A DNA stretch of 64,000 nt from Cyanidioschyzon merolae (lineage: Eukaryota), in the NCBI GenBank assembly GCA_000091205.1, contig AP006484.2. One strand, given 5' to 3'. Shown in pieces: positions 960 through 47,836 of this stretch. Below the pieces are notes generated by a model. It did no database searches. It saw only the letters and a program-made list of their open reading frames with translations, and was not told the DNA's origin. Each line of letters opens with the position of its first letter. Position 1 is the first letter of the stretch. The position numbers and the translations under genes are program-made.

Positions 960-3350
960 CCTCTTCTGGAGCGACTGCTCTATATGGGCCACTTGCATGT
1001 GCTATGCAATCGTAGCAAAGTACAGTTTTTGCTTCAATGGCGTTTCGGTCTTCAAGTAAGAGTATTCAACTGGTTCTCGCCGTTCGAAACAGAAGCGTCC
1101 AATGAGTTTTTCTCAAAAAAAAAAGTTAGAGTTATGTAATTGTTGATAGTAGGTTTTGGTTGGTCTTTGTTGCCGGATGAAGGAAACGAAACGAGACATA
1201 GTGCCTAGCGAAGACGATCAGGAATGAAGAAGAAGCAAAAGGGGAGACCTTTTGTCGATAGCTGCAATAGTGCCGTCTAGACGACGAGATGGATGTAGAA
1301 TCCTGTCGTTTCCAACATATCAATGACCGGTTTGGCTGAATTTTGCGAGACGCTATCAGAAACAATATCGATTCGTACGCCAGGTATCTTTGTAACTTTT
1401 CTCCCTAAGTCTGAAGCATTTGGAGAGCGACCTGCTTTGCGACGTAACGCACATCGCAAAAGTGATGTTTCCGGAAGTATTTTTTCAAAAGACTTTCATA
1501 ACCCACCTGAATTGTTCTACTGGGGATACATAGAGGAGAAATGAGCGTGTGCATCCCTTCTTCCAAAATTACGCCAAGTACCTCGTCAGCGGTGCTGGAC
1601 ACAAGGGTGACGCAGAATTTTAGGAATACAGGGCAACGATATGCCCCACGAATATGAGGAACCATAAGATCGTAAACATCGATTCTTTAATGATACGCGT
1701 CGTCATTGCGCTGGATCCGGGCCTGTTTCGCGAAGGGATGCGGGCAATCATCGATGGTACCAAGAACAATCGCTTGCATAAACCGGAAATCATATTCGTC
1801 GACAAGAGGTCATCACGGAGGAGAAAGAATGGGGTTTGTGTTATCCGCGCCTCTGTTCTAAACCATCGTTCGATCTTGGGGCTTGTCAACCCAAGAGGAA
1901 AGCTCTCAGATGTAATCAAAAAAGACGAAGTGAGATGTTACTCACTCATTCTGCCCTACTTCATGGTTTTGGACAGAGTACTCGAACGCGAGGCCGAAAT
2001 GGAGCCAACTGTGGAAAAAATGACGGATGGGAGAATCGACATTGATGTGCTTCTCCAGATGCGCTTCATTGTCGTCCAGTTATTCGAGTTCGAGTCACAT
2101 TTTCTGTATATCGACGTTAGAGTCCTTTACGCCTTTATGACAAAGATTTGTCCAGAGCTCGATATTAGCAACGAAGAGGTCACCGGCAAGACCGGACACA
2201 TACTGGAAAAATGTTTTCTATTTCAAGCGTAAGAAACCGGCCAAAAAAAGGTACCACGGGTGCGATCGATAACGATGGGTTATACATACATTGACAATAT
2301 CAGCGGTTGCAGGCACTTCGTCCTATCCCGTCTTCGTTATCGCCATTGCCGAACCACGAAAACAAGAAGAAAGGACACGGGACGTATATCCCCCACGAAA
2401 ACGGCTTTCTCGTCGGCCTTAACCCCTGGAAGAAGGATATCATTACCATCGCTGTACCCAAGCGTGCGGATGATAGTACTGGAGGAAACTTACGTCAGAA
2501 AGAGATGCGTCTGTTTAGGTTTTCGAGGGTGAGATACTACCGATAGTCGGGTATAATGAATGAGAGGAAGGATTTTGAGGCGTGGAACGCAGAAGTGCAA
2601 GAGAACCTTGAGGCTATTAGCTAGGTAACGAGCCGAGGAGCGGACTTACAAGCTTCTTGGGAGTTCCTGGAAGTTCGTGTTGCTCATTGCGTGGCGCTGT
2701 AGGCGGAGTATCCAAATGCCCGGTGGGTTCGTCTACGTATGAATCTATACTGTGAGCATCAGCGTGCGCTAGCGAACTTTTTCAATCAGTTGAGAGCCTT
2801 GAAAAAGGCCGAAAGTCATAGGTGCGTAGTAGCATACGGAACAAGGCGCTGGAAGAACCAAAAAGGAATTACGCCGGCTCCAACGACAAGAACATACAAG
2901 GAGTGCGCAAGGCGTTTCGTCACGATACATGTAGATGAGTTCCGAACCTCGTAGACACACCATGAACTGGGGTGTACATTTCAAAGGGTCGAGATGGAAA
3001 AGTGCCAGCGGAGGCCTGAGGATAGAAAAAAGAACGGACCGCTGACAGACGAGCAAATGGAAAGGAGGTCAAAAGTTCGTGGATTGCGTGCGTTAGTAAG
3101 TACAACCAGTGACGGCAAGAGACGGATGGAGTTCGTGAATCGTGATTTTAACGCCGCTATCAATATAAGCAGATGAGCGGTGCTGGAGAAGAGACCTCCA
3201 GCGTTGACACGAGAGAACTTTGTTGGACAACCTCTCAAAGTCGAACTATATCAGAAGAAGTTGGAAGCAGTAGTGGGTGGCCGCTCCAAAAAGACGGGGA
3301 CGTCTGCACATTGGTTAATGACGTCTAGTCTAGGGCGGGCTTCTCGCCAC
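960..3350 (+). mobile_element. Degraded copy of a ~2.4 kb TnpB/Fanzor-like (OMEGA-family) transposable element, copy 1
   Basis: Nucleotide and protein homology to a second copy at 58270-60770 in the same orientation. Shared blocks include tcaagtaaGAGtattc, aacagaagcgt, caaaaaaaaaa, ttgcgagacgctatcagaaac and the 3' block gtgctggagaa...tctcaaagtNgaactatat...gtctgcac...tctcgcca. The internal ORF fragments carry TnpB-like motifs. Confidence 0.6.
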
Positions 3351-3436: not shown

Positions 3437-6301
3437 TTACAGAGTTGCGGCCGGCCACTCCGGTCCTTTAAGTCCAAACAAACAACTGGAGACGCCACTC
3501 CAGCCGCCAAAATACTCCATCTGCCATCGCTGCACCGTCCAATACAGTTTGCGCACAGCTTGCGCCGGGTGGAATAGCCCTTGCGTCAGGTAGGCATTCA
3601 GCACTCCTGCGCCCAGCGCTATTCCCAATGCTTGCACCGAAAACGCTACCGCATGTTCTAGGTGCGTGTCTTCCGGCGAAGATACCTGGGCTACGTACGC
3701 CGGCCAGACGTGGTTCAGCAGATGGAGCATCGCCTCCTCGTAGCCGTGCCCCACCAGCGCCAGAGCAAAGTGTCCCGTCGCCTCGCAAGCCAACTGTCGG
3801 TGCGTATCGTAGCGTTCAATCAGCGCCGATTCCAACAAACGCGTCACCGCATACACCTGGAGAGCATTCCACGACCGATTCGCATCACCGGAAAATGCGC
3901 AGTAGAACCCGACGGATTTCAGGATCCCAGTTTGAACATTCTTGTCCTGCTCGCCGATGTAAGCATCCAGCAGCTGCGCTAGCATCCGGTCGGGGCTCTG
4001 TAAGGTCGCTATGGCGAGCGCAACGGATGCAGCGACACGCATCGAGCGATCGGTTTGTCGAAGTGCAGCAAGCAAGGTTTGCCCTAGCGAGTCAATTTGG
4101 CCAAGCACGCGAGCGACGGCACCGTATGCATCAACCGCCCGGTAGCGCACTTGGCGCCGCTGGGCACCGAGCGCTCTTCGAAGCTCCTGGGCAACACGCA
4201 GCCATTCCGAGTCTGGAATACTGGAGCCAGCATGACGAGCAAGCACCATCACAACCAGAGCCGCCGCAGCTTGTACCTCTTCGGCCGGATTTCGTAAGAC
4301 AGGAACCAATCGGGAGAGAATCTCAGCGAATGGAACCTCCGACGGCGGCAGGTAGGCAGTCAAATGGTCCAAAATGGCACCCAGTGCTTCTAACATGGCC
4401 GCCAACGCCTCCGGATACACTTCATTGTAGCACTCTGCGAGGACGATACCCAGACGAGCGAGTGCATCCGCATCTCCGAGTTGCACCCACATGGGCACCA
4501 GTCTGCAGACGAGTCGTGCAGCCTCTGCACGAGTCGCAGCCGCTGCACTCTGTAAACGAGCCACTAGCAAATGCACCAGCGTCTCGGACCACGGTACGAC
4601 GCGGGCACCCAACATCCACAGAATCGAGCTCACGTGGCGGTAGGGAGTCGGCGCAGAACGCCGCAAGCACTGAAGTAGACCCTGGATCAGACGGCGCTCA
4701 GAAGCCGGCTTCAGATCAAGCTGGCCACGCCCGCTCCGCAGCACCTGCCGCACCGTTTCCAGTAACAATAGGACAATCACGGGATCAGCATCCGCCGCGT
4801 CCAAGCAACAAACAACATCATCCGTCAACACAGCAGATACACCAACCCGCTCAGACATAAGTGCCGCCACTCGAGCAAGCCGCCTTCGAACAGCGCTGCG
4901 TGCTGCCGCCCGACAGACGCTTCGCTCCGGTCGCAGGAAACACATCTCCAAAAACTCTCCTAAAACGTTCGATGCTAAGGTGTCTTCGGGTATACTGCCG
5001 TGAACAAGCAGCTGTTCAAGGACACCAACAGCGCAGTGTGTGCGCATCGCACGCATCGTTGGCGCCAAAAGCGCCGCTGCATGAAAGGCGCGTTCCTCCA
5101 ATGGCATGCAGCGAATCAGCGCAGCTGCCGCTGAGAGAAACGCCACCAACGTTCGATCATAATAGGCACGCACGCCGTCCCAAATGGGTGCACGCAGCGC
5201 CTCCAGGGAGGCGGAATCTTGCGCAGACACCACCGTAGCTAGCGCCGCCACAGCACGTGCACCAGCAAGTTTCACGAGCGGATCCGGATCTGAAACAAGG
5301 CGCAGCACGAACTGCACAAAACTTGGTAGATGTGGGTGCAGATCCCCACTCCATCGCGTGGCCAGGAGGCGTAGTGAAAGCGCAGCGGTTTCCCGCGGTA
5401 GCGATCCGTACCGCCGCGAGCTCAGCATCGCTTCGAGAAGCGGTTGTATCGTAGCGAATCCTGCACTGGACGCCAGAAACGCAATGACATGAGCGGCGCA
5501 GAGCCGAATCAGGTACTCTGGTGATTCGAACCAGGGCCGTATAGCTTGGATGATCGGTGCAACGCCGACCAGGCGGAGAAGTGACCTCAGTAGGGAGGTA
5601 TTCTCCGGCGCGTCTGGGTTCATTGCGCGATCCAGGTCGATATATGACGTTGGCGCTTCGTGCTCTCGTCTCGCCTGACGTTCGACGGACTTGTCTTCGA
5701 AGTTTGAGGTTCGGTTTGGATCGAGTTCGGGCAGCCTGCCCAGCATCGTCAGATGAAGGAGCTCGCTAACGTACAACCTGACATGTTCTCCAGCGGCGTC
5801 GGCGAAGCGGGGTAGCGCACGCATCAAAGCCAGCGTCGCCGTGGCGTCCCATTCGCCAGCGCGCCAGAACGCGAAAAGTGTTCGGAAGACACCGCCGGCA
5901 TCGCCTCTGTTCGTGATAGCATAGGTTAGAGCGCGTTGTGCAGCTTTCCGCTCAGCCAGAACACTGGCGTTTTTCAGCTCCAACACGTGCTGCACGATAA
6001 CCTCAGAGGCGTGGTTTTCCCGAACCAGAGCGCCAGCTACCGCCTCGTCCACGGCAGTGCGACACGAACGTAGCGTTGCCACCGACAGCAAACCTTGGGC
6101 TCGAGTCTGTTCAGGCTCAGGTCCATCAGTAGACTTTGATGACTCGGAAACCGTTCCTGATTGCACACTCTCACTACTAGTCCCTGGCACGACACCGTCA
6201 ACAACCACAGTCCAGCGGGTCCGTTTCCGTGCCTTCTGTGGAGCGCTCTGCATCACGACTGGTCCATGGAGTCGTTCAAGCGAGCTTTCCAACGCTTCCA
6301 T
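3437..6301 (-). CDS. SF3B1: Splicing factor 3B subunit 1 (SF3B1/Hsh155)-like HEAT-repeat protein, 954 aa, lacking the canonical N-terminal ~350 aa
   Basis: The C-terminal blocks TGILKSVGFYCAFSG, YAVTRLLESALIERYDTHRQ and QGLFHPAQAVRKLYW align to SF3B1 [35 protein letters not shown] and QGLFHPARKVRDVYW. The protein is HEAT-like LxxAL repeats throughout. The ATG at 6301 is genuine. Confidence 0.8.
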   Translation of the reverse strand: MEALESSLERLHGPVVMQSAPQKARKRTRWTVVVDGVVPGTSSESVQSGTVSESSKSTDGPEPEQTRAQGLLSVATLRSCRTAVDEAVAGALVRENHASEVIVQHVLELKNASVLAERKAAQRALTYAITNRGDAGGVFRTLFAFWRAGEWDATATLALMRALPRFADAAGEHVRLYVSELLHLTMLGRLPELDPNRTSNFEDKSVERQARREHEAPTSYIDLDRAMNPDAPENTSLLRSLLRLVGVAPIIQAIRPWFESPEYLIRLCAAHVIAFLASSAGFATIQPLLEAMLSSRRYGSLPRETAALSLRLLATRWSGDLHPHLPSFVQFVLRLVSDPDPLVKLAGARAVAALATVVSAQDSASLEALRAPIWDGVRAYYDRTLVAFLSAAAALIRCMPLEERAFHAAALLAPTMRAMRTHCAVGVLEQLLVHGSIPEDTLASNVLGEFLEMCFLRPERSVCRAAARSAVRRRLARVAALMSERVGVSAVLTDDVVCCLDAADADPVIVLLLLETVRQVLRSGRGQLDLKPASERRLIQGLLQCLRRSAPTPYRHVSSILWMLGARVVPWSETLVHLLVARLQSAAAATRAEAARLVCRLVPMWVQLGDADALARLGIVLAECYNEVYPEALAAMLEALGAILDHLTAYLPPSEVPFAEILSRLVPVLRNPAEEVQAAAALVVMVLARHAGSSIPDSEWLRVAQELRRALGAQRRQVRYRAVDAYGAVARVLGQIDSLGQTLLAALRQTDRSMRVAASVALAIATLQSPDRMLAQLLDAYIGEQDKNVQTGILKSVGFYCAFSGDANRSWNALQVYAVTRLLESALIERYDTHRQLACEATGHFALALVGHGYEEAMLHLLNHVWPAYVAQVSSPEDTHLEHAVAFSVQALGIALGAGVLNAYLTQGLFHPAQAVRKLYWTVQRWQMEYFGGWSGVSSCLFGLKGPEWPAATL

Positions 6302-6601
6302 ACCCGGTTACGCGGAACCCGACCATAACACAAGGGTCAAAAGAAGCGCAAGCCTGACACAAAACGGTTTGTAGGGTCAACCGGCAGAAACCTGGCGTCA
6401 CGTACGTCCAGCTCGCGCTACCTCGAATGGGCGGGCAACGCGGAACGCTACTTTAGCGAATCGCTGGGTATTCAGGAACCCCTTGGTGACCTCAACTAGC
6501 CGTTAGATAACCAGTTGTTGGCAGTTCGTTGTGAACGAACCTATCGGAGTCACGTCGTCCATTGCGAGCCGACCTGAATCTTGACGTTTTCATGGATCTC
6601 C
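6302..6601. promoter_or_regulatory. Putative 300-bp bidirectional promoter between the SF3B1-like (-) and Der GTPase (+) genes
   Basis: The two ATGs sit head to head at 6301 and 6602 with no ORF between them. No specific promoter motif was identified. Confidence 0.3.
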
Positions 6602-8563
6602 ATGGGTCTTTCACACGTGCGAGCTGCGGTGGTGCTTGCCGGCCGACCTAACGTGGGCAAGTCGGTGCTGTTCAACCGACTCGTTGGCAAGGCCTCGAGC
6701 CTGGTGGACCCTCGAGCGGGCTGTACCCGCGATGTTCGCAGTGCCTATGGTCGGCTTGTGGACCTGCGTTTCCGTTTATTCGATACACCCGGTCTTGAAT
6801 GGCTGCCAGAGCGTGTGCAACGTGGTCGCTTGCCGGCGGCAAACAGCTTGCCTAACAGCAAAGCAGCCTTTGGCGACTCTGGACCAAACCTTATGCAACA
6901 GTTCGCCCACAGCTTGGAGTATTCTGTCGCGTATGAGAGCCTTTACGCCCGAGTGCTTCAGCTGACTGAACGGTTTCTTCGGACCCTGAGCTCTCGAGCT
7001 AAGGACAGGACGCTCGCGCTCTTCCTAGTGGACGCTTCCCAGGGAGTCGTCGCTGCAGATCACCAGATCGCGAGCCTACTTCGCAGACTAGCACTACCCA
7101 CCGTTCTAGTGCTGAATAAGTGCGACATGCGCGCCGCAGACTCTGGCACAGTGGCTTCGTTCGCGGAGTTGGGCTTTCCCTCTAGTGTACCAATCAGTGC
7201 CTTGCAAGGCGAAGGCTTCTCCGATCTATATCACGCAATGCAGCCTTTGGTTGATCACATGAACAGTGACGAGACCGTAGAGGCTTGCCGTGCAAACGCT
7301 CACATATGCGATATTCCGCGCAAACGTGATGCAGAGTGCGCTGCCAACACACACCCTGTTCAACCTGAGCGCGAATTTGCATGCGGTCATGCAGCCTCGA
7401 CGTTGTCACACGACGGCACAACATCGCATGCGGGGCTAGTGTGGAATACCAATGGAGCGGCGCTGATTGCATCCCAAGACACCAGGCTGGCCCCGTCCGC
7501 ACAGCGTCTGGCACTCGAGTCGTCACCGTCCAGCATCGATGAGACTACGACGTGCGCTGCTGACGCGCGTAGCGTGCACCAGACATCGCCGCACGACCCC
7601 CAAGGGACGTTACCTGCGCGGTATCTGACCAGCACTGATACGGCACCGGTATCCGGTGATCCCATGATGGACGAAATAGACAGTCCAGCGGTAGCCGCAA
7701 ACAGTCATCAGATTCGCCTAACCATTGTTGGTCGACCGAATGTCGGCAAGTCGACGCTGGCGAATGCGCTTCTTGGGTACGAGCGTTTCCTGACCGCGCC
7801 GTTTCCGGGCGTAACCCGCGATGCCGTCACAGTGGCCAGCTCACGCTACGGAGGCTTTCTGGTTACGGATACCGCTGGAGCGCGGCGTCGAACTGCGGTG
7901 GCCGGGAGTCGTGCAGCAGACGCAGCACCTGACCCGCTCGAAACGGGTGCCTATGCGCAGATGCTTACGAGTATCGCCACGGCCACTGCTTGTGGCCTAG
8001 TACTCGATGCAGCGGAGATTGCTCTAGCCTTGCAGCAGTCGAAGGACCCTCGCCGTTTGCTGACTAGTATGGAGCACAGTTTGATCCAGGAGGCCACGGA
8101 GTTACAAGGAAAGCCGCTTCTACTCGTGCTCAACAAGACAGACCTTCTCGAAAACAAGGAGCAGCAGAGAAACGTTGAGCGAGCTATTCGTACGAGACTA
8201 CAGAGTAGCGCTCCGGAGGCGCGCCATGCACCGATCATCGGCCTGAGTGCGGCGTGTCTTTCTGAAGATGATGCTGGGAGCCTCTTTTGCACCGTGCGTG
8301 AGCTTGTGCATTTGTGGAGTGGCTCCTGGTCTAGAGGCGAGCTCTCTCAGTGGTTATTTCAGGCGACGAGGCGCTATTCGCCACCAGTGCATGCCAAATT
8401 TGCCTATATGATACAAACTGGCAGGCGGCCTCCGGTCTTCACTATATTTGGGGTAGCGGAGCATTACCTGTCGCCGGTCTATCGAAGAACGCTTTTGAAT
8501 GCGCTCAAGCTCGATTTCGGGCTGCAGAAAGTCCCCGTCAAACTTTGCTTTCGAAGTCACTAA
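6602..8563 (+). CDS. der: Der/EngA-type double-GTPase (bacterial-type ribosome-assembly GTPase, presumably organellar) with a ~170-aa low-complexity linker
   Basis: Two G domains are present: AVVLAGRPNVGKSVLFNRLVG...TRD...DTPG and IRLTIVGRPNVGKSTLANALLG...VTRD...DTAGARRR. There is a C-terminal KH-like tail (PPVFTIFG...YRRTLLNALKLDFGLQKVPVKL). The ORF-track start at 6581 is TTG and the first ATG is 6602. Confidence 0.8.
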   Translation: MGLSHVRAAVVLAGRPNVGKSVLFNRLVGKASSLVDPRAGCTRDVRSAYGRLVDLRFRLFDTPGLEWLPERVQRGRLPAANSLPNSKAAFGDSGPNLMQQFAHSLEYSVAYESLYARVLQLTERFLRTLSSRAKDRTLALFLVDASQGVVAADHQIASLLRRLALPTVLVLNKCDMRAADSGTVASFAELGFPSSVPISALQGEGFSDLYHAMQPLVDHMNSDETVEACRANAHICDIPRKRDAECAANTHPVQPEREFACGHAASTLSHDGTTSHAGLVWNTNGAALIASQDTRLAPSAQRLALESSPSSIDETTTCAADARSVHQTSPHDPQGTLPARYLTSTDTAPVSGDPMMDEIDSPAVAANSHQIRLTIVGRPNVGKSTLANALLGYERFLTAPFPGVTRDAVTVASSRYGGFLVTDTAGARRRTAVAGSRAADAAPDPLETGAYAQMLTSIATATACGLVLDAAEIALALQQSKDPRRLLTSMEHSLIQEATELQGKPLLLVLNKTDLLENKEQQRNVERAIRTRLQSSAPEARHAPIIGLSAACLSEDDAGSLFCTVRELVHLWSGSWSRGELSQWLFQATRRYSPPVHAKFAYMIQTGRRPPVFTIFGVAEHYLSPVYRRTLLNALKLDFGLQKVPVKLCFRSH

Positions 8564-10549
8564 GCACTTTGCGTAGAACGGGAACATACGCCAAGCGCAT
8601 AGCTGTTGTGATCGACCCCAGTGAACGAATGCGCATTTGCGACCTTGGCTTCTATGAGCTCGTTGCGCTCGAATCGCTCGCTGGCATTGTAGTATGGCGG
8701 AATACATGTCGCACACTCTGGTTCGATATTTGTAAAGCGCTTTCGACGTAGATCAGAGACCGTGAATCATATGAAATATTGAGTTAAGATCAGAACAGAA
8801 TCTAGGAGGCTCATCCAAAGAGGCGACGACTTTCACAGCAAAAGCGCATGCGTCGCCACTTGCCCTCTCTAAGCAGAGACATACGAGTTTCTAGCTGCTT
8901 GTTCGTATTGATATCGATGGCTGCCATGAAGGCCACAAGAAAGGAAGATATTTCGACAACATTGCTCGATTGTTGTTCAAATACACCATTCGAGATTCTG
9001 GGGTTTCCGATCGTTTCTCCAGCTTCTTGATAAGCATGCTAGATTCCAAGCTCGCCTACGCTTTACTGGATCCTTCGGAATGCAGGCGAGATCTCTGCCC
9101 CGGGGTCGGATCCGCTTGCAATCCCACGACCCGACGTCATGGGTGACAATCTTGTCGATCGACGCAAGCTCCGCATACGAGCACCATGGCGTATTGGGCA
9201 ATATTCCCGTTGCGACTTGCGCAAACCGCCGCATCGAATCCTTCTGCGATGACTCGCGGGCTGCTCTCGAATCAGTAGAGAACTTAACGAGCTGAGAACA
9301 GCATGATCGTGGACAAGCCGACGACGGCTGCAGGCTGCTCATCTTGCATCGCTTAACGCGATACCATCGAAACATACGCATCGCCATCTCCAACATTGCA
9401 ACAAGTCATCGGCCATTCGCATCCGGTAGTGCAGCAAAAGCGGTGCGCTCTGCGGAACTGCCGCATAAATGAATGCGCAACCGATAGCTCGAAATCCGTG
9501 TGTGCATATTGAAGATAACGCATCTACGAGGTATGCAGTATTCTTGAGTTGCTTGCATGGTCATTCCGCGACAGCAGGTCTTCATGCGTTGTCATTCCCT
9601 TCGATACAACGACTCTGCCCACACAGGAGCATCCTACACACCCCCTAGTGTGAATGGAGCACACGAGTCGAGGGCTAGCGCGCTCTATTCCTGTACATTG
9701 TTACCAAAAAGATAAGCTTTTCACTGGCATGTGGGGTAAATGGATAGCCCAATCTTACAGCTGCCTCCCAGCCTTTATCGACTGGCCGCCTGCTACCGCT
9801 CTGGGTTTCTCGTTCCATACTTCGAGCCGGAAGCGTATCCCCAGAAACCTGGTTCGTGTCAGTTCCTCGAATCTCGTTTTCTACATCGTACATTGTCCGA
9901 CATTGGTGACGGTGTCAAAGTTTCGGTTTCCGAACTCCTCTCGTTTACTGCCTCTGGTAGAGGTGATCAATGCAAGGATCATTCGAACTCGCGCCCTGTG
10001 TGCCAATACACTCCCGCCACCATCCCGAATCGCAAGCACCTTTTCCCGCCTATCTGCCCTGTTCTGTGCTCGCCCGTCGGCGAGAACAGAATTTTTTGCT
10101 TTTCTTCCCGGCAACCGGGGATGACGGCCTTCAAAAATCCCCGACTTTCTTGTCAATACCTTTCGCTTAGACTATTAAATTCTCCGAGTGAACGCGCTTT
10201 GAATGTATCAGCTTAAAGTCGCGTCAAGCATTGGGCTACACGCACCTGAAGATGGAACGTACTTCAATTGAATGCCAATAGTAAGCATTTTATGAACAAA
10301 ATGGACTTGCGGATGCAGCGATCGCCAACGCATGTGGACTACCCCGGATGCGCGCTCTGCTACGTAAAGTGTGGTGTGCTATTTTGTCTCTTCTGGAAAA
10401 AAATACAATTATATCCATTTAGCGCCCATATCTGGCGCAAGACCGATGCGGGTTACGCGTCGTGCCGCGTCGCGCGGCGACGCTTTCTCCGGCAGTCGCC
10501 TCGTGCGACGAAGCGTGGATAGCTGTTTGTGCGTTTCTCAGCGACACCC

Positions 10550-44974: not shown

Positions 44975-45992
44975 TTACAAAGACGATGTCTTTTGGCGTT
45001 GAATCTCGCGATCTAATTGGCGACGAAGCTGTAGGTAGAGTGTCGCGGAGCCGCTGCCGCCACCTGCTTGTACGCGGTCGTCACCAGGCTCTAGACGCCG
45101 AGTGCGCCGCGCCCCGCCACATTGGATGCTGGACGTGTGCGCTGGGTCAGTGCTGCCGCGAGCTGGCTGCTCAGCGACATGCTCGGCTTTTCGAATGCGA
45201 ATACCGGCGTATTGACCGCGACTGACGTGTGCGCGAGCTTGGGCATCGGCCTGGGCTTGTGCCTGTTGTACCACCCGCAGCGCTTGCTCGTAAACGACCT
45301 GCTGATCACGATCCGTCTCTCCCGCGATACGCGACTCATGCCGAGAACGGCCGCGCGACTTGGCCTCCCAGGCCGCAATCGAGTCCCGCAGGGCTGCCTC
45401 CTGGAGCCACTCGGTTGCACGCTGACGCTGCTCGGCTGTTTCACGCTTTCGACGCAGGCGACTGCGCACCAGTCGTTTAAGGCGATTTCGCCGCGTCCGA
45501 CGACTCGAACGCGACGCTTCCGTATCGCCCTGCTTGAGCCGTAGTGACGCATCGGTGTCGACACCAAGGCGCGAGGCCTGCTCACGGACTGGATCGCGAG
45601 CGACGCGCTGCTCCGCAAGCGCCGCCGCCTCCGCTCCCGGTACATCGCCACGACCCAAAACCATCCAAGGCGCTTCTCCGACAGCAACCGTTTGTGTCGC
45701 ATCGGATACCAGCTTTTGCGGTCGCAATGACCAGCCGTCCGCGACCGCGAATGACCTGGTTTCCAGTACTCGCTCTGCCACCTCAGTCTGTGTCGCGATT
45801 GCGGAAGCCAGCTCCCCGAACAACGCATCCACCTGTTGCTCTAGCGGATTCCGGGGCGATTTCGGCGTCTGCGTCGAGGCGCCACGCACGATGCCCTGCG
45901 CCCCGGCTGTGGCAGCGTCGCGGCCGGCGTAGAGTTCAGCGAGGCCCTGCGCTGAGCGCTCCTGCGATAGCTCGAATGCGCCAGCATCAGGC

Positions 45993-46023
<31 letters not shown>

Positions 46024-47836
46024 CCGCCGCCGAAGGCCGCACGCGCCGCTGCACATCATCGAACGCCTGATCAAGGACACGTTGCAGGACACGTCGTCGG
46101 ATGCTCGCCTCCGTGAGCACATGCGTGTCCGTGTCCTGTGACGTGTCCGTGTCTGAATCTGCAGCGCGATCCGAGATCGCCGCTTCATCGACGTGGTTGC
46201 CTGCGAGCGCTGCCTCGTAGGCGTGCGTGCGAATGCGCGGTCGACGCGCCACCGACAGATCAAAGTCTAGCTCGGCATCGAGGACGGAGTCTACGGGGCG
46301 CTCATGACCGGTAACTTCACCGCGAAGCTGCCAGGGCTTCTCCTCTAGGTTAAATTTCTCTAGTGAACGGGCTCGGGTTCGCAACAGCGCCTCGCACCGT
46401 TCAAACGCGGATGTTTGGGCGGGTTCAGGTGTTGTCACTGGTGTGCACGTGGACGTGTTATCCAGAGTTGGCGCCGCTGTTGAAAGCTTGTGTGCGTTGT
46501 GCTTGCTGTCGTGTCTATTCTCCGCCGGTTGCGACTTGGTATCCATTGTAGCGTTTGTATATTGGTTGCGCTTTCTGTGTGGAAATGATTGCTCGCGTGG
46601 CGATGCATCGGAGCGCAACGAGTCGGATGCCTCTGAGCCGAAAAACTGCTCGTAATAGACATCATCTTCCGGAGAAGCTGAGGATTCCAGTGTGCCTGAG
46701 TCATCATCTGTCCCGAACGAATCTAACGAGGCATCGTCTATGTTGTCGATACTTGCTGTTGGTGATTCCGCGCTTGACCATGACGCATCTGGTGTCTGCT
46801 CGATCCAGGGGTCCAACTGGGCCACATGCGACGGCAACGCTTCACTGCGATTGTTTGCGTTGGAGTGCTGCGGCAGGGACTGGGCCTCGGAACCGGAGGC
46901 AGATGCACCGGCGGTGTTCGCTTCAGGCGCTGCAACATTGTGCGCCGATTCAATGGCGTTATCGCAGGTATCGCTATGACCTGGGCCTTTTTCATTCGAT
47001 TCGTCAGAGAGCAGGCAGTCTGGTGCCGATTCATCCGCTACGGACGCCGCGTTCGTACTCAGGGCGCGTCTCTTCACCGACGCAGCAGCATCTGACGCAA
47101 GCGAGTTTAACTCCATATCCGCACTCGTATGGCCAAACTTGCGTAGCGCTTCGTGGCCGACGTTCGCACCAAAGTCGCCACACGCTGCTTCATCCATTTC
47201 GTCCCGCTCACTGGAGTCTGAGGTCGACGAACCAGCATCATACATGGTATCGCACGCCTCCAGCATCGCATGCCCGATGATAAATTCATCATTGTCATTT
47301 TCATCGTCATCGTCATCGAAGAAAAAGTTTGGCGACATGCAGCCAACCTCCTCGTCTTGGTCCCGAACAAATTCCCGCGTTTCATTGCGCTCGTCATCGA
47401 AGCGTACCCGCTTCAGTGTCCCGTTATCCTGGCTCGGCGCTGTGTCCGCGGTAGAAGCAACCTCTATACATTGAGCGCTTCCGCCGCCCGTTGCAAACTC
47501 ACTTTCTATTCGCTCAAGCGTTTTCCTCGCAGCTGCACATAACGATCGGTTTCGTGTTTCGAGTTCGGCCCAAACTTGCTCGAGATCGAAACCGGCGATG
47601 CTCAATCGCTTGAGTTCGCCGAGCGTTGATCGCAAAGCCGCTGCGCGCCTTCCCAGGCATCGCCGCTTCGTTTGCCACTCAAGCGTCTTCGCAGCCGAGT
47701 CAAACAGCAGCTTACACAAGATACGGAGTTCCGAGGCCCCGCTCGGTTCCGCAACTCGTCCGGGGTCCGTTTGCGCTGCCTCCCAGGACAGCAGGCGAGC
47801 GTGCCACTCGCGCAGTGCGGCTGCTGTTTCGTGCAT
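44975..47836 (-). CDS. Large acidic low-complexity protein (953 aa; poly-Ala, poly-Asp and Ser/Asp-rich), possibly nuclear or nucleolar, function unknown
   Basis: The ATG at 47836 is genuine. The ORF is long, with a non-repetitive N-terminal 130 aa (…ELRILCKLLFDSAAKTLEWQ…DLEQVWAELETRN…) and a basic C-terminus (RRTRRNRLKRLVRSRLRRKR). It contains FFFDDDDDENDNDEF and A11 tracts. Confidence 0.5.
45993..46022. repeat. (CAG)10 microsatellite, coding poly-Ala on the minus strand
   Basis: The sequence is gcagcagcagcagcagcagcagcagcagcag. Confidence 0.85.

Follow-up and report, generated by a model that had tools for sequence, protein, structure and literature searches.

We analysed a 64,000-nucleotide stretch of Cyanidioschyzon merolae DNA (contig AP006484.2 of assembly GCA_000091205.1; the window below means this whole stretch) around an open reading frame (ORF) on its minus strand that encodes 954 amino acids (aa). 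The translation of this ORF is identical, residue for residue, to the C. merolae 10D protein XP_005535116.1 / BAM78830.1, and the public record XP_005535116.1 is named 'probable splicing factor 3b subunit 1'. An original prediction, made from the letters of the DNA without database searches, had described the ORF as an SF3B1 homolog and was exact in its position, length and ATG start. Our analysis indicates that it is very probably the single, intact and intronless SF3B1/Hsh155 gene of the C. merolae 10D U2 small nuclear ribonucleoprotein (snRNP), whose product carries a short N-terminus with a U2AF ligand motif (ULM) and has lost the p14-binding domain and the threonine-proline (TP) sites. 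The gene and the parts of its product map to the window as follows, where pLDDT is the predicted local distance difference test score of the AlphaFold model:

3437-6301, minus strand: complete SF3B1/Hsh155 coding sequence, 954 aa plus stop codon, ATG start (ORF list and translation).
6020-6301, minus strand: disordered N-terminal region, residues 1-94 (AlphaFold pLDDT <50).
6206-6235, minus strand: putative ULM, residues 23-32, KARKRTRW30TV, a basic run followed by R-W.
3479-6019, minus strand: HEAT-repeat superhelix, residues ~95-941, about 20 repeats (predicted model and Foldseek superposition).
5636-5734, minus strand: lineage-specific disordered insert of 33 residues, 190-222 (pLDDT <50).
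3539-3583, minus strand: C-terminal SF3B1 signature QGLFHPAQAVRKLYW, residues 907-921.

Comparison with all PDB chains by phmmer aligned residues 233-924 with residues 592-1269 of human SF3B1 (E=4.8e-78) and residues 236-924 with residues 264-938 of yeast Hsh155 (E=1.1e-58), which bears out the proposed homology. A weak extra stretch (residues 95-182 with human ~490-575, -2.9 bits) corresponds to the first HEAT repeats, and the anterior repeats are the most divergent part of the HEAT domain, a divergence that had been noticed before and to which the low-confidence insert at 190-222 also testifies. At the other end, the C-terminal signature quoted in the prediction occupies residues 907-921 and aligns to human QGLFHPARKVRDVYW; this segment contains the anchor motif QGLFHPA.KVR..YW, of which G908, H911, P912, R917 and W921 are invariant or nearly so in the family alignment (A1). 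HMMER, run exhaustively against 1.8 billion representatives, returned 428 family members. Family membership was taken from this search and not from a word-indexed protein search, which found no more than the cluster of the protein itself and Cyanidiococcus, whether started from one sequence or from a profile of 12.

The N-terminal 94 residues, which correspond to ~460-490 aa in human SF3B1, are short but have recognizable content. Judged by its sequence, KARKRTRW30 is a consensus ULM, and its R29-W30 pair matches the form of R100-W101 in yeast Hsh155 (yeast motif: PMC6633205). Motifs of the same kind are present in the orthologs from Cyanidiococcus (RKRTRWDE), Cyanidium (RKRRRTRWDV) and a fourth, cyanidiophyte-like source, P0031 (IKRSRWDA), and the long protein of the red alga Porphyridium has two of them (RKRSRWT and RKSRWES). 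The motif is also invariant across 14 environmental variants of the C. merolae protein.

Other N-terminal elements are missing. The p14/SF3B6-binding domain PF08920 gave no match in C. merolae SF3B1 at E<=1, nor in other cyanidiophytes or the yeast Cyberlindnera at E<=0.01, and was clearly found in the positive controls (Porphyridium, Plasmodium and the homolog P0035). Before the position equivalent to residue 233 there are zero TP dipeptides, compared to 10-20 in homologs with a long N-terminus, and residues 1-94 contain no serine-proline (SP) dipeptide. The lack of a p14 site agrees with the literature, in which p14/SF3B6 is reported as lost from C. merolae and as absent from Saccharomyces cerevisiae as well (PMC10158995, PMC7452928). 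Likewise, the lack of TP sites parallels the situation in yeast, which is without CDK11 (PMC13278848), and suggests that C. merolae does without CDK11-type phosphorylation of SF3B1.

These observations bear directly on the view put forward in the original prediction, namely that SF3B1 has here been stripped to its HEAT domain, with loss of the whole N-terminal region for interaction with U2AF and p14 and for TP phosphorylation, as an exceptional result of a minimal spliceosome. In its favor, the suggestion of a lineage with a minimal spliceosome was correct: C. merolae is the textbook case, with few introns and no U1 snRNP (PMC10158995, PMC4829280). The absence of PF08920 and of the TP repeats was also predicted correctly. 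However, a 94-residue disordered region with a conserved ULM is encoded, so that the protein is not reduced to its HEAT repeats and the claim of a wholly missing N-terminal region holds for p14 and TP but fails for the ULM. The size difference of about 350 aa, said to apply to SF3B1 and Hsh155 alike, applies to human SF3B1 (1304 aa) but not to Hsh155, which has 971 aa, only 17 more than the C. merolae protein, and the same N-terminal content (PMC6633205). Of the 54 family representatives in which the HEAT domain is complete, 20 have an N-terminus shorter than that of C. merolae; equal or shorter ones are found, for example, in Cyanidium (842 aa), the yeast Starmerella (781 aa) and Carpediemonas (943 aa). 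Altogether, we regard such an exceptional stripping as very improbable.

The architecture of the C. merolae protein instead equals that of S. cerevisiae Hsh155. Both have a short disordered N-terminus, a single ULM (R29-W30 and R100-W101, respectively) and a HEAT superhelix, with a match between the folds at template-modelling (TM) scores of 0.78-0.83; both are without the p14-binding domain and the TP/CDK11 system, and both organisms are without p14/SF3B6. They differ in the estimated number of residues ahead of the ULM (~22 in C. merolae, ~95 in yeast) and in the length of the pre-HEAT region (by estimate ~60 residues shorter in C. merolae), and also in the 33-residue insert at 190-222 that the C. 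merolae protein has. Moreover, the C. merolae spliceosome lacks U1 snRNP and Ysf3 (PMC10158995; for the absence of Ysf3 also PMC4829280), and whereas Cus2 is the ULM partner in yeast, the partner in C. merolae is only a candidate. In human SF3B1 the HEAT domain is homologous throughout (C. merolae ~95-924 to human ~490-1269) and the C-terminal signature is shared. In contrast, its N-terminal domain (residues 1-~463) carries several ULMs (ULM1, 4 and 5 are named in PMC6633205), the p14-binding domain, and 28 TP motifs that are phosphorylated by CDK11 (PMC13278848), compared to one ULM, no PF08920 and no TP motif in C. merolae.

The short form is a common trait of the cyanidiophyte orthologs examined and not a trimming unique to C. 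merolae. The proteins of Cyanidiococcus yangmingshanensis (955 aa), Cyanidium caldarium (842 aa) and P0031 (849 aa) have the same short N-terminus, which opens with a ULM and is without PF08920; those of Cyanidium and P0031 are shorter still, and the N-terminus of Cyanidium is shorter than that of C. merolae. The SF3B1 of the mesophilic red alga Porphyridium purpureum, by comparison, has 1363 aa and a long N-terminal domain with PF08920 at residues 289-417. Since Porphyridium keeps the long form, it was on the cyanidiophyte branch of the red algae that the N-terminus became shorter.

As far as can be told from genomic sequence, the short N-terminus is genuine and no annotation artifact. Upstream of the SF3B1 start codon, the window contains:

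6302-6601, no strand assigned: divergent intergenic region of 300 bp, shared with the EngA gene (sequence).
6602-8563, plus strand: EngA/Der-type double GTPase gene, head-to-head with SF3B1 (two MMR_HSR1 stretches and a KH_dom-like domain in Pfam).

An alternative would be that the gene model is truncated and that a 5' exon or a separate polypeptide supplies the canonical long N-terminal domain. The gene model does rest on genomic sequence, and the search for an N-terminal fragment was confined to the 64-kb window. However, the SF3B1 reading frame is interrupted by a TAA at 6308-6310, 9 nt before the ATG, and EngA on the opposite strand has its ATG at 6602, exactly at the distance of 300 bp originally predicted. 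No GTAAGT/GTRAGT 5' splice motif occurs on the minus strand between 6100 and 9000, i.e., within 2.7 kb upstream on the SF3B1 strand, where a single CTAAC was found. None of the upstream open stretches resembles an SF3B1 N-terminal domain. When the long N-terminal domains of ten homologs were compared with the 64 kb by tblastn, there was no match outside HEAT repeats 1-2 of the 3437-6301 ORF; the Porphyridium residues 507-587, which contain the start of repeat 1 ('LLLKIKN'), match window positions 5998-5756. A similarity between Porphyridium residues 253-271 and residues 68-86 was rejected as due to chance (E=3.9; it falls on the opposite side of the ULM).

Related genomes point in the same direction. 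In Cyanidiococcus, at 53% identity, the N-terminus is equally short and EngA is again a close head-to-head neighbor, with a 243-bp spacer in the syntenic copy. The pair of SF3B1 and EngA, followed by the gene for ribosomal protein S13, is kept in Cyanidioschyzon and Cyanidiococcus (spacer at 9758-10000 of locus L004), and the same EngA neighbor in the same orientation is seen in hot-spring metagenome contigs. The conserved pairing implies a compact promoter region shared by the two genes. Each of the 14 variants, which come from hot-spring metagenomes, has 954 aa; their substitutions concentrate in residues 1-94 and the insert, with 4.3% of sites variable in residues 1-94 versus 0.9% in the rest. 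Finally, the would-be partner p14 is reported to be absent from the genome (PMC10158995). Judged from the 64-kb window and the related genomes, a hidden 5' exon or separate N-terminal polypeptide is thus highly improbable, in agreement with the earlier judgment that a missing exon is unlikely.

The predicted fold confirms the family assignment as well. An AlphaFold model built from a 12-sequence alignment (pLDDT 79) has ~42 helices and is helical from residues ~95-99 to 941. Superposition of this model on SF3B1 of human and yeast extends over 855-900 columns, with TM scores of 0.74-0.84 per target. All of the 30 top Foldseek matches in the PDB were SF3B1 or Hsh155 (TM 0.65-0.84 per target), followed by other HEAT proteins such as CAND1 and importins at ~0.35-0.41. 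Although Pfam alone does not name the family, giving only generic HEAT matches below its cut-offs, the phmmer similarity over ~690 residues (E=5e-78), the Foldseek results and the source annotation, which likewise reads SF3b1, therefore exclude for practical purposes a different HEAT-repeat protein (a PP2A-A, importin or CAND1 relative) that is SF3B1-like at its C-terminus only.

Some points weigh against the reading as an SF3B1/Hsh155 protein with a functional ULM. Model confidence is only moderate for HEAT repeats 1-3 (pLDDT 56-89), and some residues that are important in human SF3B1 differ (K700 aligns with L342 and R1075 with Y720). In addition, the C. merolae ULM has no more than a presumed partner, and Cus2/Tat-SF1 is unmentioned in the published review of C. 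merolae splicing. Around the pocket, the phmmer alignment pairs human K1071, R1074, R1075 and V1078 with R716, R719, Y720 and V723; these positions belong to repeats 15-17 and represent one side of the pocket only, and three of the four are conserved or conservatively replaced, the change being R1075 to Tyr720.

Leu342 aligns with the human cancer hotspot K700, and Tyr720 with human R1075, which adjoins the branch-adenosine and pladienolide pocket; the two residues could affect sensitivity to SF3B1 inhibitors. The insert at 190-222 is shared by Cyanidioschyzon and Cyanidiococcus but not by Cyanidium or P0031, and it holds two of the few sites (196 and 215) that vary among the 14 environmental variants.

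Reading the gene as SF3B1/Hsh155 with a short ULM-bearing N-terminus suggests how the protein may work. Based on homology and the predicted fold, the ~20 HEAT repeats would form a superhelix that, together with the other SF3b subunits, clamps the duplex of U2 snRNA and branch site and holds the branch-point adenosine. The single ULM would dock the U2AF homology motif (UHM) domain of Mud2/U2AF65 or of a Cus2/Tat-SF1-like factor, as work in yeast and human suggests: the single ULM of yeast Hsh155 (R100-W101) binds Cus2 (PMC6633205), and human U2AF2 is reported to pass from SF1 to SF3B1 via ULM-type motifs (PMC9364107). Because C. merolae retains Mud2/U2AF65 and Msl5 (PMC10158995, PMC4829280), Mud2 is the obvious candidate partner. 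Through this docking, Msl5-Mud2 would hand over the branch site to the U2 snRNP, as happens in yeast.

The window starts with telomere repeat, C-rich strand (ccccattcccccc..., positions 1-60), and is therefore a chromosome end. We assign it to C. merolae chromosome 2, left end, where no other intact gene precedes SF3B1. The essential SF3B1 gene lies just 3.4 kb from the chromosome end. Between the telomere repeat and SF3B1 we observed a disrupted gene:

~1650-3240, plus strand: frame-broken pieces of a TnpB/Fanzor-like gene.

The pieces include 'VDEFRTS' near 2930-2950 and 'VNRDFNAAINISR' near 3135-3173, which we assume to resemble the RuvC-II and RuvC-III motifs. A Pfam scan of the short ORF pieces gave no match. 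The pieces probably derive by decay from a copy of CMe-1A, a Fanzor1 element reported to have ~150 copies in C. merolae (PMC3627910). Elsewhere in the window, the ORF at 44975-47836 (minus strand, 953 aa) was compared as a possible second SF3B1 copy and is unrelated despite its nearly equal length.

The related Cyanidiococcus yangmingshanensis carries several SF3B1 copies: each assembly has at least three intact paralogs of 955 aa, which differ by 14-27 residues, as well as SF3B1 fragments of 219-377 aa on other chromosomes. Two of the loci (L001 and L004, 9886-22868) share a ~13-kb block of ~92% identity that begins ~115 bp upstream of the SF3B1 ATG and extends away from the 5' side of the gene. 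With both genes situated ~13 kb from a contig end, the arrangement resembles a subtelomeric duplication. EngA-S13 synteny has been preserved at the chromosome-19 copy alone. One would not expect such a close relative of the intron-poor C. merolae to have a core splicing factor in several intact copies.

The gene itself was already annotated, and its product is part of the published account of the reduced C. merolae spliceosome: CmHsh155 has been modelled in the B and Bact complexes and belongs to the splicing proteins of this alga for which affinity purification and mass spectrometry provided validation (PMC10158995). The same N-terminal architecture has long been known from budding yeast, and in this sense the finding is an ordinary one. 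We found no explicit published statement on the content of the CmHsh155 N-terminal domain, and the modest addition made here is at the domain level, where a single conserved ULM is present and both the p14 site and the TP sites are absent. C. merolae could be a convenient minimal system in which to study the UHM-ULM hand-over at the branch site. It is quite possible, if somewhat short of probable, that cyanidiophyte SF3B1 represents the irreducible N-terminal content, a single ULM ~35-65 residues before HEAT repeat 1 without a p14 site or a site for proline-directed phosphorylation. If so, UHM docking would be the sole indispensable function of the SF3B1 N-terminus, and a U1-less spliceosome with very few introns to process would be able to do without activation by TP phosphorylation, for which an ancient origin has recently been argued.

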